Source of the DNA: Podarcis vaucheri
Taxonomy: Eukaryota
Reading direction: 5' to 3' (one strand)
DNA: 64,000 nt
NCBI GenBank assembly: GCA_965113315.1
Contig: OZ220363.1
Positions 1,592-49,784 of this stretch are shown one piece after another. The notes under the pieces are model-generated. The model saw only the letters and a list, made by a program, of their open reading frames with translations, was not told where the DNA came from and did not search any database. Made by a program: the position numbers and the translations under genes. Each line of letters starts with the position of its first letter. The first letter of the stretch is position 1.

Positions 1592-1673
1592 ATGCTTTAC
1601 TATTTCATACACTTTGAAAACGGTTGGCGATTTACTTTGATCTTTCTCGGTGTTTACTTCTTAAAGTGCTGTG
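1592..1673 (+). CDS. NAV2: Candidate alternative first coding exon of NAV2 (MLYYFIHFENGWRFTLIFLGVYFLKCC)
   Basis: ATG at 1592, 27 open codons plus G, then a GTG|GTAAGT donor. Phase 1 matches the acceptor at 11179 (G+AG = Glu). No expression evidence. Confidence 0.5.
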
Positions 1674-2382
1674 GTAAGTTTTTCATCTTATTATAAAAAT
1701 TTCACCATGCTTTCTGTTTTTAATGGGATTCTGCTTCCTAAATGCTTGCTTTTAGTATTAATATTTTTGCATTTTATTTATAAGGGTTTGTAGCCACAGA
1801 AACGCATGTTTAGTATCACAAAGCACTAAAAACCCAAGCTGAAAAATAATGCCAGCTAAACTGAAGCTTGAAAACCTCTCCTGCATTTTCAGTCAAGAAC
1901 ATGGAGTTTGAAACTATGGTGCAGCATCGAGTCCAGTGCTGGGTTTCTGTCTAGTAAAACTGTGCAGCAGCACCAGTGTGCATATCAGAGTTGCAGGCTT
2001 GCTTTTATGTGTCCATGTGCCGAATAACTGTCTAAAGTGCTATATCCCAGTTGGGTGCTAAGCAAGCATTACATTATCATACTTAGAAGTCGATATCACT
2101 GCAGCCCAATCACTGCAGAAGCTCCTGCTCTAAAAAAGTGAACACTATAGCGAATACAGCACAGTGAATAGGTCATAGCAATTTATAGAAAAATGGCATA
2201 GACAACATATTTATAAACTAGTGCGTTCAGTTCCTCTCCTCATTATGAAGCACACATTGGGATTCTTTTTTGTAATCATTACATTCCCAGTTTCTGTCCC
2301 ATTAGCCCAACTGAGCATAAAACACAGGCTGCAGAACAATTGCAGTAAGATAAATTCTGTTTGGGAAACTACAAACCCCTCT

Positions 2383-2722
2383 TATAGAATCATAGAATTG
2401 TAGAGTTGGAAGGCATCCCAAAGGTCATCTAGCCCAACCCCCCCGCTATGCGGGAATCTCGGCTAGATAATACATGACAGATGACCATCCAACCTCCGCT
2501 TAAAAACCTCCGAGGAAGGAGAATCCACCACCTTTGGAGGGTGCCTGCTCCACTGTTGAACAGCTCTTACCATCAGAAAGTTCTTCCTGGTGTTTAGTCG
2601 GAATCTTCTTTCTTGTAACCTGAGGCCACTGGTTTGCGTCCTAGCCTCCAGAGTAGGAGAATACAAGCTTGTTCCATCTTCCATGTCACAGACCTTTAGA
2701 TATTTGAAGATGGCTGCCCTGT
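2383..2722 (-). mobile_element. CR1 LINE 3' fragment
   Basis: ATTCTATG-type tail on the minus strand; ORF 2463-2771 encodes a CR1 RT C-terminus (FKYLK...RFRLNTRKNFL.VRAVQQW...SPS.EVFKRRLD). Confidence 0.85.
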
Positions 2723-2843
2723 GACTAGTCTTTTGGATGCTTACTGAGATAGTTAGTCTCAGTAAGGACACCTAGTGTTTTAGATGGTGTTTAGCTGGGA
2801 GGGTGGACAGTTTTTGAAAAACTGTGATGAAATTGTTCGATGC

Positions 2844-2918
2844 TTTAGCTGAGATTCGTGCATTGCAGGGGGTTGGACTAGATGACCCTTTGGGTCCCTT
2901 CCAACTCTACAATTCTGT
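2844..2918 (+). mobile_element. CR1 LINE 3' UTR fragment
   Basis: GGGGTTGGACTAGATGACC...CCCTTCCAACTCTACAATTCT, the reverse complement of the tail at about 2390-2465. Confidence 0.8.
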
Positions 2919-3556
2919 AAAATATTTATTGGATAGGAGCAGCTGGCTAATGTTCTCCTTCCTCCATTATAGTCACTAGAATTAAGCAGTTGAGACAGGA
3001 ATGTGAATCTTGCCCTTTTTTGTTCAATTGTTTCTATTGATACTTCAGTTTTCTTATAGCCGTTATACTATTATTATTTGATGTGACTCATTAACATTAT
3101 CTTAAGAATACAACTGGCTTGTCTGAGTCAGTCTTGACAGCTTATTTATATTGGAGATGTGCCATGGGGCACAGTAAATCCAAGGCCCAATGCAGTTGGA
3201 GGACAAGATACAAGCAGGCCGTAAATCATGCTGTTTAATCTTATGTCTCTTTTAACAAGCTAAATTTGGCCCTTTTTTGGCATTTTGAAACATACCCAGT
3301 TCTTTTACTTAAACATAAAGAGGCTAAAGTTTCAATAGCAGCTGAAATAGTGAAAGCTTTGCCATACTTGGTATAAACTTGTTGAAATATTAGAGTAAAA
3401 TAAAACTATATTTAAATACACTTCAACGAACTGACAAGAGCCAAGGAATATAGTTGATGCAGGTTTCTTAATTCCCACCCTTTTAAAAAGGCCACAAAAC
3501 AGATTTAAAACTAAACCTTCATAATGGGACCCCACCTATGGGCCTTTTTAAAGGTC

Positions 3557-3830
3557 TAAGAACATAAGGAGAATTCTGCTGGATCAGGAGCCCATCTAGT
3601 CCATTATTCTGTTCTCACAGTGGCCAACCAGATGCCTGTGGAAACCTCACAAGCAGGACCTAAGTGCAACAGCTCTCTCACCATTTGTGATCCCTGATAG
3701 CTAGTATTCAGAAGCTGCTTCTGACATGCTGCTTCAAACAGTCAAGGTAGCATATAGCCATTATGGCTTGTAGGCATTTGCAGCCTCCACAAATTTGTCT
3801 ATTCTTGTTTAAAGCTATCCAAATTAGTGA
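3557..3830 (-). mobile_element. Old CR1-type 3' UTR fragment (second subfamily)
   Basis: AAGAACATAAG...GCTGGATCAG...CCATCTAGTCC...GTTCTCACAGTGGCCAACCAGATG; related copies at about 13600, 29490, 44728 and 60424. Confidence 0.65.
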
Positions 3831-5539
3831 AAAGCATGGTGGAATCCATGTAGGAAGCCTTGAAGAGTTCTTTATGGTGGTATCTTTACAGAGGGGCAGG
3901 AAATGGCCATCACTTTATTGCTCCCTGGAGTATTTCATTTCTAGTAATCCAATCCTGAAGTGACCAACTGGTGTGGAATAGGGATCTGGTCAGTGTTCTC
4001 CAGGAAAGGGCAGCAGAAGGCAACTCAGTCATACTATCACTTCCAGATCAGTAGTGGTCAGGTGACCCAAGGAACTATGAAGCTGCTGACTCTCTATGAC
4101 TCTATGAAGCAGCAATGGCACTCAAAATTTTATGTCCTACAGTGTGAGATACTTTGGTATTGAGCTATGGAAGAAGGTATGATTGCGTCCACGAGAGCAG
4201 AGAGGGATGTGTATAGAAGGAAACAACAGGAAGAAGAAGCTAGCTGAAGAATACTAAAAATAGAGGCTAACGCAGATGAATGTGTATGGAGGGATGTAAT
4301 AAGGATGTGTGTGGTTGAACACAGCAAAGAATGCAGGTGTAAGAACTGACAGAAAAGCAAAGTGTGGGTATTTGCTGGGTTGGTTGTATCTAGGAATAAA
4401 AGCTTTGTTAAACCCCTGCTGTTTTTAATATTTCAATGACATTTGAAGCAAACATTTTGATTACTCTTTTCTCTTTTTGCATTTGGATTATTATAGCATG
4501 CTTTCATTTCCTGGTTATTCTTCGGTGACAAAAATGTTGTCTAACTTGATTCCCATGACTGACAGGTTTCCATGATTGTTTCAAGTCTTTCTAGTGCCTT
4601 ATAGATTGTATGCCAGACCTCTCTCTGTGGAGTTTCATTAAAACATTCAGTCAGGGTCCAAGGAGAATCCGCCTTCCAAGGGCTCTTTGGAAGGCTCTGT
4701 CATCTCAAACCTGTCAGTGTTTGTTATTACAAATGACTTAAATCCTGAAAGACTACATGGAGGGGCAAGTCTTGTTCAGTTTTTAAAAGCACCTCACATC
4801 TTCTATTGTTGCATAATGGGATGGTAGGAGTGCCTCTAGCATTTCAAGTACTTATACAGTGTTTAAACAAAGACAATAAGAAATTGTAGTCACTTAAGGC
4901 CAGACAAGGAAATAAATATGCCTGTATTGTAGCGTTGTGGGGTTCCCTCCTCACCTTTCAAAGGTAGTTCTCACAGCCATTTCTTCTCTGTGTAATCACA
5001 GTTCTATTTTATTTATTGCATTTATATTCCCCCACCCCACCCATCCTCTTGGAAGCTCAGGGCTGCATCCTCCCCTCATTTTATTCTGTCAACAGTATTG
5101 TGAGGAAGGTTCAGCTATCACTGTGAGGCACTGAGTAGCCCAAGGACCCTGCAGAGCAGGGAGTTGACATCTGCTCTCCATGGTTGAAGTCCCATCTTCA
5201 GCACCACACTGTCTCTCAAGGGTATAGACAATATCGTATGACTAAAAACTCTCTGTTACTACTCAATGTCTTAAGCAAGTAAGCTACAGTAAGAGAGCAC
5301 AGGTTCAAGAGAGGTTGGGAAATATTTACTGTACAGTGGCAGTTCACATCTTTTCAATTTGGCAGATATCCCCAGCCATGGTGGTTCTTCTCGGAAGCAC
5401 AATGGGGTGACATATTTACTGAAACATAATATGAGTTTCTGCCTGTGATAATATATAGAGGGCCAGAATTATGTGTAGAAACAAGATGCTTTTTAGCGGT
5501 GGAAACAGCTTGGTGGAACAATGAAACGTTAATGAAATA

Positions 5540-6034
5540 CCGCATTTTTTGTCCCATAGGACGCTCCATCCCATAGGGCGCACCTAGTTTTTTTGGGGGG
5601 GGAAATAAAGGGGGGGAAATTTCCTTTATTTCCCCCCCAAAAAAACCAGGTCGGGGAACAGCAGGATGGCGGTGTTGCGCCTCCCCGCTGTCCCCCGAGT
5701 TTGTGGGGCTGGCAGATGTCTGCCCGGAACTCCCGCAGGACTCCCCACACTGCGGATGTCTGCCCGGCGCGCAGGGTGCTCTGCTTCAGGGTGCCCCGCG
5801 CGCCGGGTGGCAGGCTGCTATCCGCAGCCTAGGGAGCCCTGTGGGAACTCCTGCGGGCTCCCCAGGCTTGCGGATAGCTTCCTGAAGCCTGGAGAGCGAG
5901 AGGGGTCGGTGCGCACCGACCCCTCTCGCTCTCTAAGCTTCAGCGAAAGCCTGTATTCACCCCATAGGACGCACACAGATTTCCCCTTCATTTTTGGAGG
6001 GGAAAATGTGCGTCCTATAGGGAGAAAAATACGG
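5540..6034. mobile_element. Non-autonomous Tc1/mariner-pogo-type DNA transposon (MITE)
   Basis: TA TSDs (5538-39, 6035-36); imperfect 25-bp TIRs CCG(C/T)ATTTTT...ATAGGACGC; GC-rich interior with palindromes. Confidence 0.85.
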
Positions 6035-9000
6035 TAATTTAGCAAACAGTTAAAGTTTGCTTATTTATTAGTCAATTTAAAGTGTTTTTACCCTGCTTTT
6101 TAGCCAAAAGGATTTCCAAAGTGAATAAAATGAACAAATAAAAACAAGGGAGTCTCTTTTTTTTAACAGGCTTGCAGTGGAAAAGAAATCGCAGAGAAGC
6201 AAAAAAAAAAGGGGGGGTGAGGAGGAAGGAGGGAAACAAGCAGGCCCAAGGACCAATTCTTAACATATTAGTTCTTGATTCTCAGCTGGAATGGAAATGG
6301 TTGAGGGACAAAAGGAGCCAAATTAAGCTGGTCTCACAGCAGAGCTGATGGAACAGCCTTGCTTCACATTGTTCCCTGATGGAATGGCGACTATCAAGGG
6401 ATGTATAGTTTGGTGTAGTTCTCCTTTAGATCCAAGAGGGAAATGTGCTTCTTTATAGGTATTTTTGACTGACACATTTTGGGTTTCGTTTTCAGAACTG
6501 AACTATCAAAATAAATTAGGCCATAGATCCTTGAATAAATGTGTCCATCATTTACTGCCTTTTCAAAGTCTGTTTTGTCATTTAAATCTGTGATTCCGAT
6601 TGTCATTTTTGCTGTATTTTTGTTTAATTATTGTGCATTGTTTTTGCTTCTTACTGTAAGCCAACCAACCGCCTTGAGCAATAGGACAAAAGCCAGGGTG
6701 GAAATGTTGGGTGGCTATCTTTCCATCTACCTATCCAAATGTCCTTCAGTAAGTTGGAACCTCATGACTGATCCAGCTGACTGAATGTTCCCTTCTGCAG
6801 TGGCATTCGAAGTATGACTTTGACGTAGTAGCTACAGGGAGATCCTGAGGGAAGGTGGTGTTCATGCATCTCATTATGGTTCATCTAGGATCTCCATATT
6901 AAACTCTGGAGCTAAATCCAGGGGGCCGTGGGTGCTTTGGCACCCACAATACTATACATGTGGGGGCTGCCCCCCCAAAAAAATCAATGGGCAAAGTTGA
7001 AGCCCTTCCCCACTGTCCCCATCTCTTCAATGTGAGAGAGGAGGGGCTGCTGTGTCTGGCTCTGGTCAGTGAGGGAGGAGGAAGAAAAGGAGCCGCAACT
7101 GCTGGTTGGTGTGTGTGACATCACATGTACTACATGCAGGATGTTTGTGTGACATTACACATCTGCATTATGTCGCAGACACCCACAATCTTCAGTGCAA
7201 GATGGCACCTATGTTATTAAATGTTACTGCAGATGTAGCTAATCAGAAGCATGAATCAGTCATGCTTCTATTTCCCCCTGCCTGACCCAGATCTCTGTTG
7301 AAATACACTGCTTTTTTCTCTGAATTAGTAACATGACTACTGTATTTCCATCTCTGGGTATATTTATTTTTGTAGACTAAAATGTAAAGTTGTTGCTGAA
7401 GATTCCCTTTATGTGTTTTAACTAAGACCTGAACTATGTCATATGGTGTCTGGCTTCACACAATCTGCTGTGTGTGAATGAAATTGGCCCAGGTTACTTT
7501 ATGTGCACAACCCAGCAGGCTGTGAGTGGTGTTTGGCGAATAGACCAGATAGTCATATGCATTAAAGAATTGTTAAACTGTTCTAATTTTATTTTCTGCT
7601 GTATTTTCTTTAGTTTCTGCTTTCTTGTGTTGATAAATTCCAGACACCATTTAACTATATTTGCTTTATGAAAAATCTCTTATATTTATGTTTCTTTTTG
7701 GGTACTCACTGTGAGTCTGCCTAGAACTATGTTTGGTAATATTTAGAGGCATTTTTGGTTACTTCTAGCAAAGTTACATAGATAGTGAGAGAGCAGCTTG
7801 TGTTTGACAAATGATGGGAAATTGCATATATTTTCTGTGGCATTTATTATAGTGCAATCTCTCTAGCATTTCACAGAACAATTCAAACCATATGCATCTT
7901 CTCATTGCAAATGGTTAGGCTTGCGTTTGCAGTGAAGACATTACAGGAGCGGATGAAATCCAACCTAGCTGTACTGCAGTGTATATTGGCATTCAAACAT
8001 TCATCTGTGTAACAGAAACACTTGGAATTAAATAAACTCTAGGCACAGCACTTGTCTATGAAAGAGGCAAAGTGAGTGGTTATTCAGCCTAGCTGTATTT
8101 TGAATTTGAAGACATTTCATTTGTTGTCGATAAAAGTCAGCAATGGTTCTGCAAAAAGAATAGAGCTTCACAAAATAAGACAAATGGGATTTTAACTCAT
8201 CATAAAATCAGTTGAGTGTTCAGCAGGACAAAGTCAGAGCTAATTGAAATGAAACTTTCTTTAGGAAGTGAATTTTTTTATGATGTATTGTTGAGATAGG
8301 GCCAAAACAATTTACCACACTGAGCAGCAAATTTTTTAAAGTAAAAACTGACCAAGAGATGGAGGCAGGCATGTGGTAAAGTCCTCAGGCAAGTGCATCT
8401 TCTTCCAGAAACTCCATATTGGGAGCTGATGCTGAGCAAGACAAGTCCATCCATAACAAAGTTGTGGCTTAAAGTTTCCCATATTCCGCTCTCTGACCAC
8501 TAGAAGTTTCTTCAGAGAATAAAACATAATGTATACATAAAAGCAATCCCCATTAGGTTTTATGATGAGGTGATACAATTCTCATCATACAGATACAGAT
8601 ATAACAGGTTTAAGGATGAGGGCATTGTTTATTTTTAATTGAGAAGGCAATGTGTGATGGCTGCAGTTTATAGTTGTGAGGAAAAGGAAGACTAGAGAAG
8701 ATAAAATAATAGTGGGAGATGGGAGAAGAGGATAAGAATTGAGAGTAAGTAGGGAGAGAGAAAATGAGGATCAGGGAATGGTACAGGAGACAACAAGTTA
8801 TGGGTGGGGTGGATGAAGAATAGCTTTGCACAGTTCAGGGCTACTTAATAAATTACAAAAAAGTTTCCAAAAACCTCTCCTTTAAATACCACAGCAGCTT
8901 TTGCAAATAAATTTTACAAATTTACAAGTGAACAGGAACTTTTACTAGCCTGCTGCTCATTCATTGCTAGATGTTGAGAGGACCGAAAAGCATTTAGCCC

Positions 9001-9154
9001 TACCTAGATTTGATTCTTTCTTATCAGAGGCAACTACATGAAAAACATAGTAAGAATGAATCTTTTACTGAAACATATCAATAAATCCTTAGTGGCTTAA
9101 AGGCTTAATTGACACTTCGGCATTAAGACAGATCTGAGGTCTGTGCACATACTA

Positions 9155-9427
9155 CAGTGGTACCTCGCAAGACGAAAAACGCGGAAGACGAAAGAGTTTT
9201 CCGTTTTTTGAGTCGTTCCGCAAGATGAATTTCCCTATGGGCTTGCTTCGCAAGACGAAACATCCTGCGAGTTCTTGCGAGTTTGTTTCCTTTTTCTTAA
9301 AGCCGCTAAGCCGTTAATAGCCGCTAAGCCGTTAATAGCCGCTAATAGCCGTGCTTCGCAAGACGAAAAAACCTCAAGACGAAGAGACTCGCGGAACGGA
9401 TTAATTTCGTCTTGCGAGGCACCACTG
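9155..9427. mobile_element. Tigger/pogo-like MITE
   Basis: TA TSDs; TIRs CAGTGGT(A/G)CCTCGCAAGACGAA matching at 21/22; internal AGCCG(C/T)TAA tandem repeats. Confidence 0.9.
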
Positions 9428-10217
9428 TACATTGGTTTACAGTCAATGGTACCCTTGAGCTCTGCCTTTTTAGGTGCATTTAGCATAACTTGTGAAAGAG
9501 CCCATATGGGTTGACGATTCACCAATTTAATGTGTGTGCTAATTAATCCATGAAAGGCTCTTCTCCCTGCATCTGGGTCTGTTAATAAAATTTCTCCTGC
9601 GCCATGCCTTTCTGTGGCTCCTGGCATAACGCTTTCTGGGGAGGAAACTGCAGCAGAGACCGTCCAGTTTTAACGGGTTGTGGTTAATAATCCAACACGC
9701 TGGAAATCTTCCCACATCCTAGCAATGCCTTCTTCCTATAAAACAAGCGTACACATCTGCTCTTCTAGTTAGGACGTAACAGTGTGAAATGACCATGGGC
9801 TTATTACAAGAGGGTTCTCCTGGAAATTCACATCCCTGCTACGTAAGGAAGATGGGTGTGCTTGGAAATTTGAGGTGGTCTGGTATGGATCATGCGAGGG
9901 AGGTTAACAGAGCTTTATCTTCAGTGAGCAGCCAAAAGTGAAGCAAAACAGCCTCTGTGTGGCTGCAGCAGCAGTTAGTGATTCACAGAACAGCATTCAC
10001 AGTTTCCCCCCACAAACTGCTGCAAACATTCACTCTCAGCCGTTGTTTATTTTTAAGTTCAAATTTTTTCTTTTTTTCTTTTTATAAAAAAACCAGCTTG
10101 AGAAGCGCTATATGCCGTTTATTGCTAGAGGATCTGGGACGGCAGGTAAAAGCCGTTAATCCCCAGCAAGCTCCTGGGCAGACTAACAGTCAGAGATGAC
10201 AAAAGTTAATTGGAAAC

Positions 10218-10321
10218 ATGAGCAGCATAACAGAAGACATATTTGCAGTAATTGGGATGTAATGTCTCCAGAAGAGAGAGTTTGCAAAGAGTAACTTTAA
10301 AAAAGAAGTGGCTCTCAAGAG
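10218..10321 (+). other. NAV2: Candidate alternative first exon of NAV2 with a 1-nt frameshift or UUG start (…GCNVSRRESLQRVTLKKKWLSR)
   Basis: Frame open from TTG 10252 to an AG|GTGGGT donor (10321/10322) in phase 1, in frame with exon 11179. Removing 1 nt at about 10252-10256 links it to ATG 10218. Confidence 0.35.
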
Positions 10322-11178
10322 GTGGGTAAGCAAGTGTGGTTCTTATGCTCTCGTATTCATTGAATGAGACGCTTTCAAACAGACAGAATCAATAAGAGAT
10401 TTGGACTTGCCAAGGAAGCATTTTCAGCTAGCTCTTTTTACTCCAGCTGGTTTCAATTATGAGATAAAGATGTATCGTTTATTGTTGCTGCGTGAGTAAG
10501 GATATGATGAGTTTCGGTTTTGTGGATTTGGGTTTGATTCAGTGTTTTACTGGACTAGAAACTGAGCTTGCAGTTATCAGAAGGATCTTCTGATAGAGTG
10601 TGCATGTGTGTGTTGTGCTGTTTGATCCATGTTACAGTTGGATTTTTGCCAAGTCGCAAACTTCAGCAGAGCTAATTCTGCTCAGTATAAAGCAGACAGT
10701 TTGGGTTATAAAGTTTTAATATTTTTTGATTTTCTAATAGTATGCTGTTAGTGTCTGATCAGGATACTCTGACACACACTGACCATGTGCATTTATTTGA
10801 ATGTAATTGCTGTTAGGTAACATCTAAAATACATTATTCTCTATTATTTGGTAAGCAACTAAAGGTAGACAAGGTGATTCATAGCAATAAGAACAGAAGG
10901 TCCCTGCCAGAAGGCTTAAAAAACACACAACTTAATAATTTTAATTGTTGATGATTTGATCGTGCTATTATTTTATTGCCCCCCCGACCAAAACAAAAAT
11001 AAAACAGATTTTGTTTTGAATGACATAGTGTTGTGTACAGGTCATATAAAACGTTACCTCAGTATTTCGTAGCTGCTGTTAGATGTCAGCATTTTGTGAA
11101 AGCAAGCTGTGTTCACCTGAAGACTTTCCAAAAATCATGGCATCATGATTTTCTTTTCTTTTTGTTTTCTGTCTCCAG

Positions 11179-12292
11179 AGCCAGCAGACAATTTAGCCTC
11201 TCAGCCCACAGGAATGAATGAAAATGCACCACCTTCAACCCAAAGCAGCAGTAGCAACAACATTGCCGGTTGCAATAACTCCTCAGCCATCCCCCAGCCC
11301 AACTCTGCCGTTAAACCCTGGCGCAGCAAGTCACTCAGTGCCAAGCACACAGCTACGTCTTCCATATTATCAGTAAAACAACAGGTCCAGGAACCTCCGA
11401 AATCCTCTCCAGAGATGGTCAAACCAACTCCCAACGGTCAGAAATCCATGCTGGAAAAGCTGAAGCTTTTTAATACAAAAGGAGGCTCCAAAGCAGGAGG
11501 GTCATCCCTTGAATGTCCGGGGTCTCGGGACACTAGTTGTGAAAGGCTAGAGGCCCTCCCTAGCTTTGAGGAAAGTGAAGAGATTGAAGCTGCGAATCGG
11601 AACGCAAACAACCCCCCATCAAACAGTCCCAAAATTGCACTCAAGGGAATTGCACAAAGAACGTTCAGTCGGGCACTGACCAATAAGAAGAGTTCCCCAA
11701 AGGGCAATGAGAAAGAAAAAGAGAAGCAGAAGGATAAAGAAAAGGAAAAGAGCAAAGACGTTGCCAAGAGAATATCCGTAACCGAGAAAGCAGATGTGAA
11801 AGAGGAGCTGAAAGAAGAACAGATCCCACCAGCTACAACCGAGATGCCAAAAAAATCCTCCAAGATCGCAAGCTTTATCCCTAAAGGAGGAAAGCTAAAC
11901 AGTGCCAAGAAGGAGGCACCTGCCCCTTCGCACAGTGGAATACCAAAACCAGGGTTGAAAACCGCCACAGGGAAATCCTCAAGTGCCCCAAGCTGTTCGG
12001 CAAAGGATGGCGAGAGAAGCCGCAGTGGGAAGCCTGCCTCAGGCCTCTCTCATCAGAAGCCCCAGCTGGACGGCAGGAATTCCAGTTCCACGTCAAGTTT
12101 GGCCTCCTCTGAAGGGAGAGGCATTGGAGGGGTGCCTGCTCTGAGTACTAGTAGCAGTACCCAGGCTGTCAATGGGCCCACAGGCAGTACCACACAGACC
12201 ACAGGAAGCAATACTGTGAGTGTTCAGCTACCTCATCCGCAACAGCAATACAGCCACCCGAATACTGCCACAGTAGCACCATTCATGTACAG
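11179..12292 (+). CDS. NAV2: Neuron navigator 2, large internal Ser/Pro/Lys-rich exon (1114 bp, phase 1-2)
   Basis: Pyrimidine tract plus CAG acceptor; AG|GTAGGA donor. Peptides KPWRSKSLS, QKSMLEKLKLFN, KIALKGIAQRTFSRALTNKK, KIASFIPKGGK and HPNTATVAPFMYR are recognisable NAV2 sequence. Confidence 0.97.
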
Positions 12293-12543
12293 GTAGGAGA
12301 ACCTTTTTAAGCAGGGTGTGTCAAGTCTGACTTGCTTAGCGTAGTCTGCTTCTTCTGTGGCATGCTTTCTCTAGAAGTAGGAAAAAACCTACAATAACAA
12401 CTTGAGTTTGGTTTCCACCCCAAACAAGCGTTCCAGATCCTAATAAGCAGCAGACTTGTGGTGTGCGTAGGACAGAGCTTCTTTTTATTTGTGTCTCGAG
12501 TTAACAGTGAAAGCGACACAAAAGAAGAAATACAACTGTAGTA

Positions 12544-12544
<1 letters not shown>

Positions 12545-12590
<46 letters not shown>
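12545..12590 (+). repeat. (AAT)n microsatellite, about 15 units
   Basis: Direct reading. Confidence 0.95.
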
Positions 12591-12591
<1 letters not shown>

Positions 12592-15185: not shown

Positions 15186-15188
<3 letters not shown>

Positions 15189-15238: not shown

Positions 15239-15242
<4 letters not shown>

Positions 15243-15254: not shown

Positions 15255-15373
15255 ATCCCAGACAGACAATGAAGGGAATGTAACGGCTGAGCCCAGCACT
15301 GGAGGGATGAGCACGAGCATGGATTCTGCTCCTTACACTAAAACTACACAGCCTATTTTAGAAGATCTTTCTG
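15255..15373 (+). CDS. NAV2: NAV2 internal exon (119 bp, phase 2-1): SQTDNEGNVTAE...LEDLS
   Basis: AAG acceptor, G|GTAAGA donor, in frame with both neighbours, matches NAV2. Confidence 0.95.
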
Positions 15374-17947: not shown

Positions 17948-18056
17948 GGGAAGATCCAGAAGCTCGACGATTGCGAACCGTCAAGAATATCGCTGATCTT
18001 CGACAAAACTTGGAGGAGACCATGTCAAGCTTACGAGGGACCCAGGTTTCTCACAG
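17948..18056 (+). CDS. NAV2: NAV2 internal exon (109 bp, phase 1-2): GEDPEARRLRTVKNIADLRQNLEETMSSLRGTQVSHS
   Basis: CTCTAAC branch-like site, TAG acceptor, AG|GTGGGA donor; conserved navigator coiled-coil motif. Absent from the ORF track. Confidence 0.97.
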
Positions 18057-20423: not shown

Positions 20424-20813
20424 CACCTTGGAGACCACCTTTGATACCAATGTCACCACTGAAATAAGCGGACGCAGTATTCTCAGTATGACCGGAAGGC
20501 CAACACCCTTATCATGGAGACTTGGGCAGTCTAGTCCCCGCCTTCAGGCAGGTGATGCTCCATCAGTGGGCAATGGATATCCTCCAAGAGCCAATGCCAG
20601 CCGGTTCATCAATGCAGAATCAGGGCGTTATATGTATTCAGCTCCCTTAAGAAGACAGCTAGCATCGCGGGGCAGTAACGTTTGTCATGTGGATATCAAT
20701 GACAAAGGAGGTGATGAAATAGATCTTGAAGGAATCAACATGGATGCCACGGGTTACATGAGTGATGGAGACGTTCTGGGGAAAAATATAAGGACTGATG
20801 ATATTACAAGTGG
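20424..20813 (+). CDS. NAV2: NAV2 internal exon (390 bp, phase 2-2): TLETTFDTNVTTE...GYMSDGD...DDITSG
   Basis: AAG acceptor, GG|GTGAGT donor; SPRLQAGDAPS and GYMSDGD navigator motifs. Confidence 0.97.
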
Positions 20814-32725: not shown

Positions 32726-32883
32726 TACTTTGTTATGTTTCATACTCACTATCCCATTTCCTATTCCAGCAATGTGAAAGAACAGCCCAGTTGTCACCAT
32801 CGATCTTAGCAGGATGCTGACTGGGTGGGATAAACCCCACCATCATGATTGTTAATATTCACACACTTTCTCCCCCTGTGGGG

Positions 32884-35312: not shown

Positions 35313-35329
35313 CAACAGATTGATACAAG

Positions 35330-38300: not shown

Positions 38301-39070
38301 AAAATTGGCTGCATTATGCCCAAATTAATGAGGTTTTTAAGCTAGACAAAAAAACAGGTTTCCAGGTGGAAAAATCGAAACTTGAGACAGAGTTGCTTGA
38401 ACCAAAGACCAAGTTATTATCGAGAATGTATAACTTGCTGCTTAAATGGAACACTCAAGATGAGATAGTTAAATCAGCAATGATAAAATGGGCTCAGGAC
38501 ATTGGTTATAATATTATGTCTGATGACTGGGAAAGGTTATGGACCACCGGTATGAAGTTTACTGCATGTAATGCTTTGAAAGAAAACATTATGAAAATGG
38601 TATACAGGTGGTACATGACCCCGGTTAAGCTAGCTAAGATTTACCATTTGTCCGATAACAAATGTTGGAAATGCAAGGAAGCTGAGGGAACATTCTTTCA
38701 CCTCTGGTGGACCTGCCCAAGACTGAAGGCCTTCTGGGAAATGATCTATAATGAGTTAAAAAAGGTGTTTAAGTACACTTTTCCCAAGAAACCAGAGGCC
38801 TTCCTTCTAGGCATTGTCGGCCAGAAGGTGTCTAAAAAGGATAGAACTTTTTTTATGTACGCTACAACAGCAGCAAGAATTCTTATCGCTAAGCATTGGA
38901 AGACCCAAGATTTGCCCACACTGGAGGACTGGCACACGCAACTGATGAACTACATGGAATTAGCCGAGATGACTGCAAGGATTCGAGACTTGGGAGAAGA
39001 AGCAATGGAGGAGGACTGGAAAAAATTTAAAGACTATTTGCAAAAGTATTATAAGTTATATGAAACATAA
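35330..39070 (+). CDS. L1 ORF2p (1246 aa): APE endonuclease, reverse transcriptase, CCHC zinc knuckle
   Basis: SWNING, LQETH, GDMN, RID, SDH (EN); KSPGPDG, YRPISLLN, DAEKAFD, GTRQGCPLSP, FADD, KYLG (RT); CWKC...HLWWTC. Confidence 0.97.
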   Translation: MSLQLYSWNINGANSPEKRKRIFHILKKENLDIICLQETHVTRVHRKVLTNKRLGQEFISSDRVKKRGVVIYAKETLSPKLLFKDEQGRILAIEISTQGEKILILGIYAPNEGKSEFYKKLHETLLDYLDYSNIIMMGDMNGVVSTFMDKSQNQNLTKDGRLPKTFFELTDNMDLIDSWRTRNPLGKEGTFFSEAHLSWTRIDQIWTTRGLAPKTTKIEICPKTCSDHNALKMEMRFTTADSFRWKMNDNLLRDQEIVKKAQKALKDYFEINLNTSVEKRTIWDASKAVMRGFLIQQNTIKKKLWNGKKDKILEKIRDGEKKLRLNPKSKETLREIKFHQSQYAQLINQEVEWRIKQMKQRSFESANKCGKLLAWQLKKRQKLNYVTNLEVEGKNIQKPGEIRKCFQKYFKKLYTQGPEDVTEIEQFLKENGLPEISQEKRSTLNCKITQQEIEDAIQNMQLGKSPGPDGLTSKYYRTLKDYLIQPLEEVCNQIMGGGKAPDTWKEAFITLIPKVETEKTQLKNYRPISLLNVDYKIFADILANRFKKVLNEIIHKDQAGFLPGRHLFDNTRNIIDILELLQTNINTKAVLIFIDAEKAFDNISWKFMKKNLEGMGVGRGFENGIEAIYSEQKAKLIVNNVVTEELHIEKGTRQGCPLSPLLFISVLEVLLNMIREDRQVQGIRVGAKQYKLKVFADDLVLTLQEPEPSTKRVLELIQKFGRVAGFKLNKQKTKVLGKNLTAMETEGFQKETELNIVKKVKYLGVNLSSKNLNLFKDNYEKCWLEVKKDLEIWSRLKLSLLGRIAAIKMNVLPKMLFLFQALQIVDRVECFGKWQKDISRFVWQGKKPRIKFKILTDAKERGGFALPDLRLYYEAAAFCWMKDWILLENTDVLDLEGFNNSLGWHAYLWYDKGKSYGMFKNHIVRKAIYMVWKKYKDLLESKTPRWISPIEAKARKTTNMEAYWPKYWEIIENIEGNWRLQSFEKLKDKVQNWLHYAQINEVFKLDKKTGFQVEKSKLETELLEPKTKLLSRMYNLLLKWNTQDEIVKSAMIKWAQDIGYNIMSDDWERLWTTGMKFTACNALKENIMKMVYRWYMTPVKLAKIYHLSDNKCWKCKEAEGTFFHLWWTCPRLKAFWEMIYNELKKVFKYTFPKKPEAFLLGIVGQKVSKKDRTFFMYATTAARILIAKHWKTQDLPTLEDWHTQLMNYMELAEMTARIRDLGEEAMEEDWKKFKDYLQKYYKLYET

Positions 39071-39478
39071 GATGTCGTGTGATTGGGAATCTAGCCCCAG
39101 TAACAAAACTTAATTATTTATGAAATTTGATAAGATTTATGAAAGAATCAAGGTTTAAATGGGTAAAAACGATATTATGGTATATTGCTCAGAGTATATA
39201 TTGATCAAGAGATTTAAATTTAAACTGTAATTGAAAATAGAAAGAAACATACGAAATAAGGATATAATTTGCTGATAAATTTATTGTTAAGAAATGCATT
39301 CTGCGAGGGATGGGGGAAGTCCAATGGAAATTTGAAATGAGTTATCGAAATGGTCGTGTTTTTCTTTTTCCTTTTTTTCTGGTCTTTTTTTTTTTTCTTC
39401 TTACTTTTTGATCTCTTTGTTATTTCTGTAAAAAATGTAATAAAAATTATTATAAAAAAAAAAAGTCCTACTTCTCGG

Positions 39479-41289
39479 CCTCCATTGCCTCCGCTAGCTC
39501 TCGCCCGGCGCAATTATTTAGTATAATTAGGTCTTTAACGTCCCTCGAAGGACAGCCAAATTTAAATAACAATTCGACACACAGCTGTGAGGCATTTGCG
39601 AGCTTTTTTGCGGAGAAGGTCCTGTTGCTCCGCCATGACCTCTCTGCCAATTTGGATACAATGAAGGAACTGGAGGCCCCTCGACTGTCCTCGGGTCCAG
39701 TATTGGACCACTTTGACCGGATATCCCCAGCCGATGTGGACAGACTCCTCCAAGCTGGAAAGCCCACCACTTGTCCTCTTGACCCGTGCCCGTCCTGGCT
39801 GATTAGAGCGTGTCCAGACGAGGTGCGGGCCCCCCTGGGTGATATCATCAATTTGTCCCTTGGCACTGGGATATTCCCAGGGGAACTGAAGGAGGCAGTG
39901 GTGCGTCCGCTCTTAAAGAAAACATCATTAGATCCTTTAGATCTATCCAATTACCGCCCGGTTTCGAATTTGCCATTCCTGGGCAAGGTGATTGAGAGAG
40001 CGGTTGCTGAACAGCTTGGTAGGTTTCTGGATGAAACATCTGCTCTCGATCCATTCCAGTCCGGCTTCCGCGCTGGTCATGGGACCGAGACGGCTCTGGT
40101 CGCCCTAACAGATGATCTCCGTAGGCAGCTGGATCGAGGCGGGTCGGGGCTGCTGATTCTTCTAGACCTGTCAGCAGCCTTCGACATGGTCGATCACGAA
40201 CTCCTGGACCGCCGCCTTGCCGACGTGGGGATACAGGGCACAGTCCTTCAATGGCTGCGCTCGTTTCTCTCCGGTCGGGGACAGAGGGTGGCGCTTGGGG
40301 GGGAATTGTCATCGCGCCACTCCTTGGTGTGTGGAGTGCCTCAGGGTGCGATTCTCTCCCCGATGCTTTTTAACATCTTTATGCGCCCCCTCGCCCAGCT
40401 TGTCCGGAGTTTTGGGCTGGGTTGCCATCAGTATGCCGATGACACCCAACTCTATCTGTTGATGGATGGCCATCCTGACTCGGCCCCAGATACACTGACC
40501 AGATGTCTGGAAGCTGTGGCTGGATGGCTACGTGGGAGCCGGTTGAAGTTAAACCCTTCGAAGACAGAGGTCCTCTGGCTGGGACGGAGCGATATGGGAT
40601 CGAGGGGGCAACTCCCATCTCTTGCGGGGGTGCAATTAGTGCCAGCATCGTCCGTGAAGAGTCTGGGTGTAATCTTCGATACCTCCCTCTCTATGGAGGC
40701 GCAGATTACAGCTATAACAAAGGCGGCGTTTTTTCATCTCCGCCAAGCTAAGCAGTTGGCTCCTTATCTCTCTCGCCCTGACCTAGCCACTGTGATCCAT
40801 GCGACGGTCACCTCCAGACTGGATTATTGTAACTCGCTCTACGTGGGGCTGCCCTTGAGACTGACCCAGAAACTCCAGCGGGTGCAGAATGCCGCGGCGA
40901 GACTCCTTACGGGGTCTTCGCTGCGAGATCATATCCATCCGGTGCTGTACCAGCTGCACTGGCTCCCGGTGGAGTACAGGATCAGGTTTAAGGTGCTGGT
41001 TTTAACCTTTAAAGCCCTATACGGCCTAGGACCCTCGTACCTACGGGACCGCCTCTCCTGGTATGTCCCACAGACAAATTTACAGTCTGCAAATAAAAAC
41101 ACCCTAAAGAACCCAGGCCTCAGAGAGGTTAGGCTGGCCTCAACTAGAGCCAGGGCCTTCTCGGCTGCGGCTCCAATCTGGTGGAACGCTCTGTCACAAG
41201 AGACTAGGGCCCTGCAGGACCTGACATCCTTCCGCAGGGCCTGCAAGACAGAGCTGTTCCACCAGGCCTTTTGTCAGGGCGCAGCCTGA
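39479..41289 (+). pseudogene. L2 ORF2 RT domain (open frame, no EN domain, separated from its N-terminal part)
   Basis: NYRPVSNLPFLGKVIE, FQSGFR.GHGTETAL, LLDLSAAFD, GVPQGAILSP, YADD, LNPSKTE, RLDYCNSL, LHWLP. Confidence 0.9.
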
Positions 41290-42198: not shown

Positions 42199-44267
42199 CA
42201 AAGCCATGGACAAGTTCATGACCAAACTACACTCTGCCTGACTTCATTCATCAGTTCAAGTTTTGTAGACTAAAACTTGAATTGACCCTAGCCATCTGGC
42301 TATATATTTCTTAGTTTTCACATTGACAAAACTTGTGGGCAGACTTCACATACTACTCTTTGTCCAGAAAGATAAAGTTGAAAGGAGATGGTGGTCAGTT
42401 AAGAATGATGGGTTGACAGACTAAGGGAATAAAGTATGGTTTGGCACAGAAATTTAGCCAAGAAAAAAAGAAAGAAAAACAAAACTATTCTGAACTGACG
42501 TGTCAGGTTTCCAGTAGTTCTAGAGAAATTATGGGGCTTTGCTCTCTCATTTTTTTGAGCGCTGCTGCCCATCTTTTGGCACAGCAATCCTTGTGGGCCA
42601 GCATAGGTTCTTACTTTAAGTTACCACATGCACTTCCAAATCCAACTCCTGCTGCATTTCAGTTGGGGAGCCAATTGTGATTTAATGGATAACCCACCCA
42701 AAGCCACAGCATATTAAATAAGCATCCCTGCTTGCAAAGGAACAATTAGGAGCTCACTCTAAGCTCCTAGGTTTTCCTTTGTAGTTGTGTTTGTACCTCA
42801 CCTCACTTGACAGCAGGTGGGCGTCATCAGGATTTTGGTCTTTCAAATTTCAGTGGCACCCTGTAGGAGGCCAAAAATCAAAGGAGGGCATAAGAGAAAG
42901 GGGAATCTTCTCTGTACTTTTGTGTGGACTCCCCTGACCTCCTCCAAAATTTGGCCCAAATCAGAGTTTTCCTATTAGTATTTAAAGCCCATACCAGCTT
43001 GGGACCAGCTTGTCTCAACGATTGCCTTGCTCCATACTTGCCCACTTGACCACTTCAAGCTGTGGAACTTGCACTTCTACAAGTTCCATATAATGTTCAT
43101 TCCACAGTTAGAAGTCATATCTTTTCATGTGGTGGGCACCCTTGCTAGACGCCTGCTTAAGAAAAAATATTATTTCAGCAATCCTACTCAGACATATAAT
43201 TTAGTTACATATACTTGTTTTTTTAAAAATTGTTGATTTTATCTGTGGTGTCATTATTTTATATACGCTGTTTAGCTATTCTTTAAAAATAAGAGAGCAG
43301 TATATAAATTTTGCTGAGTAAAAAATCCATGTCCTAGGTTTGGAGGACCCTCTACAATGAAAGGTAGCACTGCAGAGGGAAGATGAATTCACAGAAAACC
43401 ACCTCTCATTTTTTATGTCAACCGACGTCTGTGCTGGATCAAAAGCCATTCTTCAACCAGCATGTCAGCACTGGATTTAACCCAGGCAGACTAGAACAAA
43501 GTAAACATGGGTTCAAACATTCAACTTTCTTTGTTCACCTTAATAGGAATTATATTTATAAATAGAAGAAAATTACTTAAAACACAAGTCAAACATAAAA
43601 CCACCAGAGGAGGAGGGGACAGGAGAGAAGTGATGACAAAATAGTAATAAAAACTTAGGCTGTGTACACACTCCCAGTGTTGGTGTTTGAAGCTGTGTAC
43701 ACATGACCTTAGCCACAATCTGTACCTATCCTGCAGTTATGTGGAGAAATACTGCTGTTTGATGCACTTTCCCTCAAACTATCTTCCATCCTATCTGAAA
43801 GCGTAAGCCGTCATTTATATACCTCCCCCAAAAGCCCATCCCAGAATGTTGGCTCCATAACAGAGAAGGTCTAGTCAATTCCTCCAGCTGTTGTCATCTC
43901 TTTGTAAAATGTTTTCAACAGGTTTGATTCTGCATTAGATAATGTCAGGTGCTCCTGTAAATTGGCAACTGAAAAATAGGCAAGATTTAGATTGCTAAAC
44001 TGAAACCTACTGTACTTGATCTCATTCAGTGAATGGAAGTAGGAGTGAAAAGCATTACTTAAGGCATCTTTTTAAAAAACAAAAACAAACAATGACTTGG
44101 AATGACTTTGCTGTACCAAACAAAATGTTTGAGGTGCAAGCAGCTGGCAAAAGGAGAGAAAAGTTCAAGAGTTTAAGTTGCCAAGGGAACTCAGAAGCAG
44201 TTGGTTTATGCCAGTAAATTAGGAACAGAGGAGGGGGGAAGCACCCCCCTTTTTTGCCTAGAAAAGC

Positions 44268-44297
<30 letters not shown>

Positions 44298-44299
<2 letters not shown>

Positions 44300-44320
44300 G
44301 AGGTTGAATTTCCATTTGCG
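44298..44320 (+). CDS. NAV2: Candidate alternative first coding exon of a short NAV2 isoform (MRLNFHLR-YMTDGG...)
   Basis: ATG AGG TTG AAT TTC CAT TTG CG|GTAAGT; phase 2 matches acceptor 49662 (CG+G = Arg). No expression evidence. Confidence 0.4.
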
Positions 44321-44727
44321 GTAAGTCCTTTTAATGCTCTATTAATAACAGTTGGATAAATAAAGGTTGTACACTGAATGCGACTGTAGAAAATGAATTT
44401 TACGACCCATTACTAGTTGTAGAATAGCACTGTCATTGAAAAAAATCCTGAGATAATCAGGGAAATGAATCAGAGAATTATTTTCGTAGTTTATGCTTAA
44501 TTCATTAATTAATTTCTGTCATTCCCATCTGCCATTTTTAAGCTATGCTAAACACCCTTTAGATGTTTTGAGAAAGTGCTGAAATTTAATAATTTGCATA
44601 GAAATCACAAAAGTTGAAGGGCTTCTCTGGGTTAGCTCCCCAAATGCAATAAAACCCAAATGCCTCAGTGTGTCATTTGCACTTTCCATTATTCAAATGG
44701 GTTTAGGCAGTGTGTGTTGAGTTACTT

Positions 44728-44922
44728 TAAGAACACAAAAGCCATCAGATCAAAGGTCCATCTAGCCCATCATCCTGTTCTTACAGCGGTCAATCAGATG
44801 CCTATGGAAACCCTGCAAGCAGGATCTTAGTACAACAGCACTCTTCCCCACTTGTATCTGCCAGCGAATGGTATGCAGAGACATATTGCTTCTGACTCTG
44901 GAAGTAGAATATAGCCATCATG
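44728..44922 (-). mobile_element. Old CR1-type 3' UTR fragment
   Basis: Same family as 3557-3830. Confidence 0.6.
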
Positions 44923-45542
44923 CTTTATCTTCAGAGGAACCCTGTGAAGTAGGTTAGGTTGAGTAGCCTAAATTTACCCAGTGAGCTTGACAGCTGATCA
45001 GGATTTTAATCGATACTTCTCCAGTCCAATCCTAAAGCTATCAACTTTTCAATCTACATTGACCTAATTTGTACTTTATGCTAAGGCAAACCATGGCTTA
45101 GCCTAAATGAGCACATGGGCTCTGGAAGAGGAAATTGCAGCCACTTTGCACCTCTGCTGCTGTTGCTGCTGTACTGTGCTGAGGTAAGCCATGGTTTGAC
45201 TTAATGTGCTCTCTGAACCCTGGCTCATGGTTCAGTTCTCTCCAGAGTCTGACCACAAACTGTAACCCGAGATTTGTCCTGTAGAGTTTACAGTTTGGGC
45301 TTTGTCTGGGAGAGCTAAGCCATGACCCAGTGCTCAGTGTAGCAGCAAAATGACTGGAAAGGAACAAAGTGAATTGGCTTAGCATGACTGTGGGAACCAG
45401 GCCTCTGTAGACATTATTTTAACTGCAGCTTCCTATGTAACCATCCACAAGTGATAATCTTTTTCTACATTTGGTTAAAAGAAGGCACCTATTCTTGCAT
45501 GCTGCTGCTGTTAAAGACACAGTTACTGAGGCTGACTGAAAA

Positions 45543-45598
45543 ACTGGTGCATTTTGTTCATTATATCATACTGGTGCATTTTGTTCATTATATCATAC
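45543..45598 (+). repeat. Perfect 27-bp tandem duplication
   Basis: ACTGGTGCATTTTGTTCATTATATCAT twice, plus AC. Confidence 0.95.
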
Positions 45599-46478
45599 AT
45601 CACAGTGCTTAATTACTACCTCTTTCTTGCAATTGTTTTATGAAATGGTAATGTTATGTGTTATAAAAAAAATTGGTGTTTTTGCACTAGAATAGTGAGA
45701 TTTAAAAAATAAAATAAATAAATAAGTAGACTAGATAACCAGGTAGCAATCATTAAATATGTCCATAATCGATTTTCATCTACTGGTTGTTTGTATTCAT
45801 GATTGTATGAGGATTCCACAGATGAGTTCAATAAATATCCCAGTGAAATACATTTTGGATAGCCAATCATTCAAATCTCTGTTTATATCTCCAATACATG
45901 TTGCAACTTCTTGTTGTGCTAGAGGGTCACAGACTTTGTCTTAACCTGCCTGCCAAAGTTAAGTAAACTTCCCCCTCAAAAGCTGTGCTTCTGTGGAGCA
46001 ATAATTCAGCAGAGCAAATGGGGGAATTTGTTACTTACAATTCCTCTGGCACACTGGCCCTAACCCCAAATCAACAGCTTCTTCATTTATGACAACCTTA
46101 AGAAGGAGAGCTTTATTGGGTATGAGAAGTCCATTTGCTCTGTTTTCCCAATAGTTTTGCTAATTGCAAAATCTAATATGCCTACACACAAATACACACA
46201 ATGTATCTTGGTGAGGGGGGTGTTATTGTTGAAGGAAGCAGAACAGCACATTATTCATAGCTATTCACACTGTTATTTTTAATCAAATATTTGGGTACAA
46301 AATATGTCCTGATAGTGAAGAATGGTGGCTGCTGCTGTTTTCGGACAAGCACAAAGATTACACCATAAACATGCATACATTTGGAAAGCCATTTTTCTTA
46401 TTCATGTGCTCTGTCTGCATAGGTCTGCCAAAAGAGGCACAAGTGTTTCACTTAAAATAATGAAAACTAAAAAGATGG

Positions 46479-46480
<2 letters not shown>

Positions 46481-46554
<74 letters not shown>
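46481..46554 (+). repeat. Compound microsatellite (TC)20(AC)17
   Basis: Direct reading. Confidence 0.95.
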
Positions 46555-46557
<3 letters not shown>

Positions 46558-49500
46558 CAGATATTCCACTGATTTGAGCCTCCTTGAGCTACACTCATGA
46601 GGTTCTGTTTCCTTTCCTGTTCCAACATGTATGTCCAGAAAGGTGGTGATAAATAGGCACCAACTACCTAAAGGGGGGTTGGGGATGGAATGCCCTGTCA
46701 TTGTGACATGTGGGAAAGTCAAAGTTCATTCAGTGTTTCGTTTTTTCAATGCAATGTAGCGCCGTAGCAAACGTTGCTGGTGCAGGAAAAGAGGCTTGTG
46801 GTTATATTAGTGTTTTTAAATGGTTGTAGGTGAATAGGAACTGGAAGGATAAGATGGCAATGTCTATAAGCAAGAAAGGATCTGCCTATTAGGCAGGAGA
46901 AGCTAACTCTGTTGAGGGGAGGGGTAAGCAGCAGCTGGAATAACAGAAATGGAGTTCACTCATGCTTTTGTTTATTTCTAAAATGTATATTAACTGATTG
47001 GACAAAGTCTAGCCTCATAGATTGTTGGCCAAAATCCGACTGATATCAGTGGAGAGATTTAAGCATGTGCTTGCCTGCCCCACTGACATCATCAGGGTTT
47101 CAGTGTTCTCAGATTTGATTGACTTGTCTAGTACACATTTTGTATGTGCACCTGAGATTTTAAAGATTTTAAAACTGTATACATCTAAATACATTAAGTT
47201 TGAACGCAACGAAAAGGCGTTTTAATGTGCATGGAAAGAAGACATTGGTCAGACCATTAGGATGGCTGCAGTATTCTGTTAAATACTGCCTTGGTGGCAA
47301 ACCTGTTAGTTACTGTGGAATATATGTGTGTATTTGTTTATATTTGTGTATATGTTCTCTGTGGCACTTATTCCATGTTGAATGAAATGTCCTTAAATAC
47401 TAGCACTTTTAACTCGGTCTGTTACATAACTGCTGAGTTTTCTTCTTCCACTTTAAAGGTTGATTTTTGTAAGCTCCTGACAAATAAATGAATGGAGGAC
47501 TAGTGGCAAGCTAGCTTCTATTAGTGCCATTGAAACTGGACTCCTTGTTTATGCAGTTGAGAGAAAGTATTGTGTCTTGTCCCCATGGACAAAGCAGAAC
47601 TGAGAATAGCCCTGTCCCTAGTTTAACTAGCTTAGCAACCTCTTTGTGAAGCCCCGGAGGGGCAATTGTCTTTTGTTCTTGAACCCAGTAGAGACTCACA
47701 AAGCTAACTTACATCCATTGCACTTTTTTTCTTGCCTTCCTGTTGCATGAGAAGTTTAAGAATTGAGTTAGGCAGCACAGTCAGGTTTTGTCTCTTAATG
47801 TTGACAGTATAACACTAGGGTTTCAAAAAAACGGGTTAGTGCTTCTGTGGACTAAGGGTTGTTTTCTGTTAGTCACTGCAAGATTATCAACTTTAACAGC
47901 ATTTGGACTGGCCGTGTGATGGGGGAAAGCTTCTTTTTCTCTTACTCACGGGCAAAGATAAGTCTCTAGAAGAAAAATCAGTGAGTGGCAATGAACTTTG
48001 CAAAACTAAAGGACGTCTTCAGCCTCTTCAGATAATTTGGTCACTGTTTCCAGAACTGCATTGGAAGGAAATAGCTCTTCAGGTTACAGTTTAGCCAAGT
48101 ATGTTATTTTATTGAAAGTTTACCAAAGCTTATCAGTTTGTTGGTTTTCCTATTGTTTATTTGATGTACATTTGGATTGTATTGCCAATTTGGAAACAAT
48201 CTAGAAGAAGGGGAAAAGTGCACATATACCATGCATTTAGAGTTTTTTCTCCAGTGTTCATAAGCTTATTCATTCATACTCCTGTTTGCAAAAAACAACA
48301 ATATATGCATCAATCTCTGTCTTATAGCCAAGCATATTTTACATGTGTATGTGTTTGGATGAATTATTTGCATTTATTTTACTTTTAATATATTCAGCTT
48401 AATAGATATATTTTAATTTCAGCTGGACTGGTTTGATATAGATATTTATTCTTTAGGGGTAAAGGATGGTAATAACACTTACTTTATCATTTTAAACCAT
48501 TATAAAGCATTTTTAATGTTGTTTGTCAGAGATGCTCCTTTTATTTCAATGCCAGTGTTTTATTTTATCCTGTCTTTTCCAAAGAGATAAACTATATTCA
48601 TAACTTGTTTTAAGTTCTTAAGTGTGACAAATTTACACTCTGTTAAACGCCATGAAATGAACATAGTGATGCTATATCCGGCTAATATACTGAAGAGTTC
48701 ATGTGTGAGTGTGATTGCATACTGCAGACATGGAAGTGGGTGTTTTGATGACAGAAAATATACAATAGTAATTCCAACATTTTCAAGCAAGAGCCTCTCA
48801 ATTCCAAAATGTTATGCAAGCTGTATGACACCCAGTGGCAATGAGAGGTCTATTGCTGATATTACCAGCCCCTGCTACCACTGGAATAATTTCCTTTTTA
48901 CCCTGTATTCCCAATTATATGAAGATACTGGAAGGATAATCCTGCCTGAAAAATTAGTTTTCTTACCCATTTACTTATGAAGATAACCTCACAATATTAC
49001 CAGCCCATTCCTAGTTGGAAGACATTATTACTCAATCAATTAATTACATTGATATCCTACCCCTCCTTCCAAAGGAGCCCAGGGCAGCAAACAAGAAGTG
49101 TCCATACAATAAAAACAACTTAAAAGCAATTCCCGTACACATGTAAACTGAGAACGATACGGGAAAGTCTACAGTAGGCACACAAAAAAACAGCAGAGAT
49201 GTCATCTAATATTCAAGGGAAGGGAATTCTGAAGGGTAGACGTTAAAATACTATATGCTTGGTTCCTATATTGTGCAGAATGGACCTCCTGATAAGATGG
49301 TATTTGCAAGAGGCCCTCACCTGCAGAGCTCAGTACATCAAGGTAGCAAGACCTTTGCCATGCTTCTAACATGCCACATTCCCCCCTAAAACTGACTTTT
49401 AACAGAATTCATGCTAAATGTAATGTGTAAAAAAGCTCTTGCGTTTTATTCCTTGGCAAAATTTAGTTTCAAGTAAATGTGCTCCAACTTTACATCTCTC

Positions 49501-49661
49501 AGTGTTGAATTTAGTGATTATATGATGTGCATGCATTTTTCTATCCTATTGTTACCCTTTGACTTTTTTGGTGAAGGATAATATAAAAATGAATTGCTAG
49601 CTAGCTAGGTTGACTGATCTGGTAAACTTGCAACACAAATGTATTTCTGGTGTTTTCAAAG

Positions 49662-49784
49662 GTACATGACAGATGGTGGATTGGGCCTTTACACTCGAAG
49701 GCTAAACCGACTTCCGGATGGGATGGCTGCTGTACGGGAAACTCTGCAACGCAACACCTCGCTGGGCCTGGGCGATGCAGACAG
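49662..49784 (+). CDS. NAV2: NAV2 internal exon (123 bp, phase 2-2): YMTDGGLGLYTRRLNRLPDGMAAVRETLQRNTSLGLGDADS
   Basis: AAG acceptor, AG|GTAGGC donor; in frame with 20813 (GG+G = Gly); recognisable NAV2 peptide. The ORF track shows a different frame here. Confidence 0.96.

Follow-up and report, generated by a model that had tools for sequence, protein, structure and literature searches.

The 64,000-nucleotide stretch of Podarcis vaucheri DNA analysed here (the window; G000:C1:61876001-61940000, with all positions below counted from its first letter) lies within a gene identified by its sequence as the lacertid orthologue of NAV2. An open frame of 391 codons (11121-12296) has 99% identity to NAV2 of Podarcis muralis, the NAV2 exons follow one another in order on C1, and a NAV3-like copy is present on C29. 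A full-length relative (P0083) carries a CH domain and an AAA lid according to Pfam. The CH-domain exons lie upstream of the window, the exon that precedes the one at 11179 being about 11 kb before the window start, and five NAV2 coding exons lie inside it. The original prediction held that three short intronic units, each an open reading frame (ORF) ending at a splice donor in the phase required by the next exon, provide interchangeable NAV2 N-termini. The units and the surrounding features are listed below.

1592..1673, + strand: unit 1, the coding portion (27 codons) of what is likely an alternative first exon; phase-1 donor at 1674
10083..10089, + strand: TATA box preceding unit 2, with the run X1 contig beginning 42 nt further on
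10125..10321, + strand: unit 2, likely first exon (donor GAG/GTGGGT at 10322; true 5' end perhaps at about 10112)
10252..10321, + strand: in-frame open stretch of unit 2 from a TTG, an unproven candidate for a non-AUG, myristoyl-type N-terminus
11179..12292, + strand: large NAV2 exon with three SxIP motifs; its phase-1 acceptor is common to the upstream exon and to units 1 and 2
11214..11216, + strand: internal ATG, the likely main start of a CH-less isoform, proposed from Met conservation and protein starts
15255..15373, + strand: NAV2 coding exon
17948..18056, + strand: NAV2 coding exon
20424..20813, + strand: NAV2 coding exon with a phase-2 donor
44286..44320, + strand: unit 3, the coding portion of what is likely an alternative first exon; ATGs 44286 and 44298 are both in frame, and the phase-2 donor is at 44321
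49662..49784, + strand: NAV2 coding exon accepting unit 3; it needs phase 2 and has its own Met at 49666

Unit 1 opens at ATG 1592 and reaches its donor (GTG/GTAAGT) at 1674 in phase 1, the phase needed by the exon at 11179; it encodes MLYYFIHFENGWRFTLIFLGVYFLKCC. The start context is weak (T at -3, C at +4) and is overlapped by another ATG, at 1588, with A at -3. Isoform X7 of Zootoca vivipara (XP_034973219.2; P0208) begins with MLYCFIHLENGGRFTLVFLGVYFLKCY and runs on into the SxIP exon. The two peptides are identical at 22 of 27 positions, W to G and C to Y being among the changes. The next exon has five changes in 370 residues, against five in 27 here (Fisher p = 2e-4), which suggests near-neutral drift of the unit 1 peptide. 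An N-terminus of this type was found in one of the 310 retrieved proteins of at least 1200 residues, a catalogue that covered 120 of 2681 matches and, from two lacertid clusters, 15 of 28 and 15 of 32 members. A comparison of the unit 1 ORF with 1.84 billion representative proteins gave a sole match, to one repetitive, unrelated protein, and Pfam returned no match for either first-exon peptide queried. RNA depth was zero in the bin 1200-1573 in all four runs, and the bin 1574-1947 had depth in run X4 only; as this depth is indistinguishable from intronic background, it gives no clear RNA cover for unit 1.

Unit 3 reads MRLNFHL from ATG 44298 and reaches a donor (GCG/GTAAGT) at 44321 in phase 2, matching the exon at 49662. 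Its start codons come from a (TA)n(TATG)4 microsatellite at 44259-44300, which provides ATGs in all three frames; 44298 is the last of the four and 44286 is also in frame, so that a change in repeat number would alter which ATG is met first. The unit contributes 8-12 residues. The sequence LNFHL is shared with Hemicordylus capensis isoform X6 (XP_053142642.1), which begins with MLNFHLWYMTDGG, and with isoform X5, which uses the same first exon (P0253 and P0258); the Hemicordylus start lies one codon later than that in the window. These two, from one species, are the only unit 3-type N-termini among the 310 long proteins. Met 49666, two codons into the acceptor exon, is the start of Hemicordylus X7. 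RNA over 43900-50000 amounted to 14 records in four shallow runs, none of them at unit 3, where the microsatellite was skipped.

Most of the reads over 43900-50000 in the single-cell runs X21 and X22 gather at 47570-48180, which is single-copy and intronic; a further exon, a start site or internal priming could each explain this pile-up, and three reads at 47918 have an adapter-like loose end. Beyond the window there is a fourth internal first exon (L003, about 6325-6423; C1, about 61946400). It ends in MLWPRDLA with a phase-2 donor, is identical to Hemicordylus X8 at 29 of 32 residues and is the best kept of the internal first exons, far better than the unit 1 peptide.

The extent of unit 2 was taken from a 208-letter contig of run X1, a run of guessed RNA status from a close relative. 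The contig aligned over 197 letters to 10125-10321 with one difference, the aligned part stopping on the last base before the donor at 10322 (GTGGGT) and leaving 11 letters overhanging. The other low-depth intronic contigs among those listed aligned end to end (three of three). The alignment was examined for 16 of 4114 pieces and 15 of 39 joints, and no joint from unit 2 to 11179 was among the 15 listed. This one contig is suggestive of a first exon at unit 2. No RNA record was listed as containing 9880-11500, and 14 guessed-RNA runs contained 0.12-0.21 of its words. An alternative form of unit 2, from ATG 10112 to a phase-1 donor at 10146, was disfavoured because the X1 contig continues through 10146. 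The four ATGs in the unit 2 exon (10196, 10218, 10257 and 10262) are all out of frame. The ORF of ATG 10218 has 14 codons, ends at 10262 and does not share the NAV2 frame. The frame that is in phase 1 at the donor contains no ATG: it opens after a TAA, at TTG 10252, and reads LGCNVSRRESLQRVTLKKKWLSR, probably the myristoyl-type form of the original prediction. Unit 2 thus suits the phase of its acceptor only through the TTG frame or as 5' untranslated sequence. Of the three units as originally predicted, 1 and 3 are as described in sequence, whereas unit 2 is not.

The frequency of such units was estimated with a donor bar of at most two mismatches to the consensus MAG/GTRAGT, set by the gene's real donors; all six real donors in the window show two mismatches in at least one tested position. 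In the 11.2 kb that leads up to the SxIP exon, five of 25 qualifying donors had an in-phase ATG frame, as did 14 of 51 in the 28.8-kb intron, giving 19 units in 40 kb. The pattern of ORF, donor and phase is thus by itself no better than chance, and the three sites are still favoured as first exons because of the outside evidence, namely the predicted isoforms and the X1 contig. The setting, previously called poor in transposable elements, is so locally, the three stretches being single-copy except for the unit 3 microsatellite, but not at the scale of the two introns, which are rich in repeats.

A start codon shared by units 1 and 2 may lie in the SxIP exon itself. In 97 distinct NAV2 segments, drawn from 261 proteins after 16 NAV3-type proteins had been excluded, the equivalent of Met 11214 is kept in 93, from fish to mammals, while its neighbours vary; in the interval from the upstream KP to the SSAIP block, no residue is better kept. 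The four segments that lack it are turtle models with aberrant sequence at this point. Among the 310 long predicted proteins, 16 begin at this Met. They come from 15 species, and lizards, turtles, crocodilians, a cormorant, bats and a gerbil are represented; Podarcis muralis X10 and Lacerta agilis X11 are among these isoforms. In a message spliced from unit 2 to 11179, Met 11214 lies 94 nt past the stop of the upstream open reading frame (uORF) that starts at 10218, with G at -3. From these features, Met 11214 would be the main start for unit 1 and unit 2 transcripts.

We consider it likely that the three sites are ordinary alternative first exons of NAV2, the main effect of which would be the loss of N-terminal domains and not the gain of targeting peptides. 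Each unit is likely to be under its own intronic promoter. Units 1 and 2 would be spliced to the SxIP exon to give CH-less NAV2, translated mostly from Met 11214 by leaky scanning or by re-initiation downstream of short uORFs. The unit 3 product would lack both the CH domain and the SxIP exon and would start at or just before Met 49666. The choice of intronic promoter would thereby set where NAV2 begins, removing the CH domain first and the SxIP exon next. Localization may then change through domain loss, because SxIP motifs mediate plus-end binding (a passage of PMC9877351). The short peptides encoded by the exons are most likely incidental. Isoforms predicted in other lizards have the peptides of units 1 and 3 joined to the correct exons, and these models, with the X1 contig, make it probable that the sites are alternative first exons, as had been proposed, and that they give CH-less NAV2 forms. 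The short form expected from unit 3 is also supported: Pfam finds no CH domain in P0253, and the three SxIP motifs lie in the large exon, which would be skipped. The accompanying caution that some isoforms might already be annotated was justified for units 1 and 3, which appear in predicted RefSeq isoforms of Zootoca and Hemicordylus.

Several observations weigh against this account. Neither RNA alignment lists a joint from a unit to its acceptor (one of them showed 15 of 39 joints), and the 11-letter overhang of the X1 contig is below the 31-letter minimum for bridging a joint. X1 is RNA by guess, and it has intronic contigs of similar depth. Run X21 covers the SxIP exon with zero depth at units 1 and 2; in run X23 the SxIP exon is itself uncovered. 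The supporting RefSeq isoforms are predictions, and a model that begins at the internal Met names no 5' exon. The conservation of Met 11214 could have a structural cause. The Gly-Cys-x-x-Ser motif and basic stretch of the unit 2 TTG frame are an oddity that ordinary first exons leave unexplained.

That oddity speaks for an alternative in which promoter choice swaps membrane-targeting N-termini, with an acylated, polybasic form from UUG 10252 and a hydrophobic, Cys-bearing form from unit 1 placing SxIP-bearing NAV2 on membranes. Starts of the type Met-Gly-Cys-x-x-Ser, which the TTG stretch resembles, occur in G-alpha-i and Src-family kinases, and the consensus for a dually acylated N-terminus combines Ser6, Cys3 and a basic cluster with Gly2 after the initiator Met. 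In the unit 2 exon, the sole stretch that is open in frame reads TTG-Gly-Cys-Asn-Val-Ser, with Gly2, Cys3 and Ser6, and has seven Lys or Arg against one acidic residue among 23. Dinucleotide shuffles of the exon gave xGxxxS in 52 of 20,000, a PROSITE-like site in 99 of 20,000 and xGCxxS in five of 20,000, this last figure being post hoc, since the motif was picked after it had been seen. As TTG precedes the Gly and the frame contains no ATG, Gly2 could follow an initiator Met only through non-AUG initiation. UUG start codons are known (Ivanov 2011) and G is present at +4. However, the context has T at -3, the uORFs from 10196 (G at -3) and 10218 (A at -3) overlap the TTG, and nothing notable was found as a downstream hairpin (z -0.97). 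Conserved non-AUG starts are described otherwise in a passage of PMC3105428, where good context is called crucial and a downstream hairpin is noted; TTG 10252 has neither.

Also against an acylated form, the TTG-frame peptide occurs in no retrieved protein, none of the 310 long proteins begins like unit 2, the NAV3 intron has no counterpart of the stretch, and NAV2 is missing from the Thinon 2014 myristoylome supplements. Neither these supplements, the main text of Ivanov 2011 nor the rest of the literature searched (few subscription papers and no original cloning papers) yielded an acylated or non-AUG NAV2 form. A search of shorter proteins gave 19 matches, none with a terminus of the unit 1 or unit 2 type; their extensions came from intron read-through, faulty gene models or the usual upstream exon. 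Metagenome scans for vertebrate NAV2 DNA gave 590 pattern matches, none confirmed, and, separately, three loci that were chance matches. For unit 1, the 11-residue hydrophobic run (Kyte-Doolittle 2.37 and 2.35 in the two lacertids) and one Cys are retained in both species, but the best 19-residue hydropathy is 0.92, less than membrane-spanning length requires. The threshold for a membrane span is about 1.6 over 19 residues. The terminal Cys-Cys is Cys-Tyr in Zootoca, one of the two cysteines being lost. As judged from its sequence, the peptide lacks the length, the Cys conservation and the purifying selection of a hydrophobic or palmitoyl anchor.

Swapped membrane-targeting termini are on this evidence improbable. 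The hydrophobic, palmitoylated form originally predicted from unit 1 was not upheld, the peptide being unconstrained; nor was the myristoyl-type form from unit 2, which requires a poorly placed UUG beneath two uORFs. With unit 3 adding just 8-12 residues, the broader claim that swappable lipidated N-termini set NAV2 localization is unsupported. The fullest version of the idea, to which we give little credence, is a TATA-driven intronic promoter producing a UUG-started, myristoylated, palmitoylated and polybasic CH-less navigator that ties microtubule plus ends to membranes, is unannotated in all amniotes and is switched by uORFs against the soluble form from the internal Met. Such a form would be missed by annotation in all amniotes because it has no AUG. 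If real, it would count among the rare acylated proteoforms with a non-AUG start, and as a lipid-anchored NAV2 isoform it would lead directly to the functions at membranes that have been suggested for navigators.

A more mundane possibility, which we regard as unlikely though less so than the membrane forms, is that the units are cryptic or noise exons, i.e., functionless, spurious low-level starts or splices caught by automatic annotation. The 19 comparable units in 40 kb, the rarity of unit 1 and unit 3 termini among the long proteins, the microsatellite origin of the unit 3 ATG and RNA support from a single contig are all in keeping with noise. Against it, LNFHL and the donor phase are common to a lacertid and a cordylid, the TATA box, contig start and donor of unit 2 agree with one another, internal-Met models come from 15 species, and the fourth exon is closely matched in Hemicordylus.

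Hck, with a CUG start and myristoylation, is a precedent for a lipidated N-terminus from a non-AUG start. Its p61 and p59 forms arise from two starts (PMC1899183), both on one mRNA, whereas the NAV2 candidate is a UUG in poor context below AUG uORFs. Another likeness is NADH-cytochrome b5 reductase, for which PMC2289487 describes an alternative promoter that alters the N-terminus and membrane binding, with leaky scanning to a downstream AUG giving the main product. That system is experimentally shown and its myristoylated form starts at an AUG, neither of which is true of NAV2; BTK-C can be named beside it from a title alone. NAV1 is a CH-less navigator that keeps its SxIP motifs (PMC9877351, in part), like the products expected from units 1 and 2, but it lost the CH domain at the gene level and NAV2 would drop it by isoform.

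The literature already contains alternative promoters for NAV2 and a short transcript without the CH domain, as excerpts of three papers indicate: 'alternate promoter usage' is stated in PMC9985553, PMC2843687 describes a shorter protein, proposed to arise from an alternative start 'upstream of exon 13', and the short mouse Nav2 transcript, which survives the gene trap, is noted to lack CH in PMC9877351. These concern the same gene in mouse and human; the passages seen do not map the three lizard exons, and the fourth exon is a candidate for the mouse short start. Several promoters are used by half of human genes (a passage of PMC13082882). The predicted RefSeq isoforms (Zootoca X7, Hemicordylus X5 and X6, and the internal-Met forms) share the peptides and acceptors or the internal start, and none of those retrieved is in the TTG frame.

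The CH exon, upstream of the window, is joined in the retrieved isoforms to at least three N-termini that recur (MPAILV, MESGSE and MSVMLW types), which points to alternative first exons along the whole gene. Retrieved proteins P0017 and P0219 have additional residues before MPAILV, a separate candidate N-terminal extension. In the Fedorova 2022 PhyloSET, of which two of five NAV2 rows were examined, both on this upstream extension, human NAV2 has a PhyloCSF-positive extension of 32 codons ahead of the annotated start of the full-length transcript.

Other features of the window are apparent or probable mobile elements. An apparently intact L1-like long interspersed nuclear element (LINE) occupies 34233-39070 on the sense strand of the gene, with a 359-codon ORF followed by a 1248-codon ORF containing endonuclease and reverse transcriptase domains. 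On either side lie an upstream fragment (32849-33538) and a second reverse-transcriptase ORF of 625 codons (39412-41289), possibly one older element split by nested insertion. A chance-looking phase-2 unit at 45107-45190, with six consecutive Cys and a good donor at 45184, lies between short inverted repeats and is probably a mobile element.

The gain from these observations is in annotation. They locate, in a lizard, the likely promoters of CH-less NAV2 and draw attention to an internal start codon that is conserved from fish to mammals. Should the mouse share these promoters, the CH-less forms could bear on how 'hypomorphic' Nav2 mutants are read.

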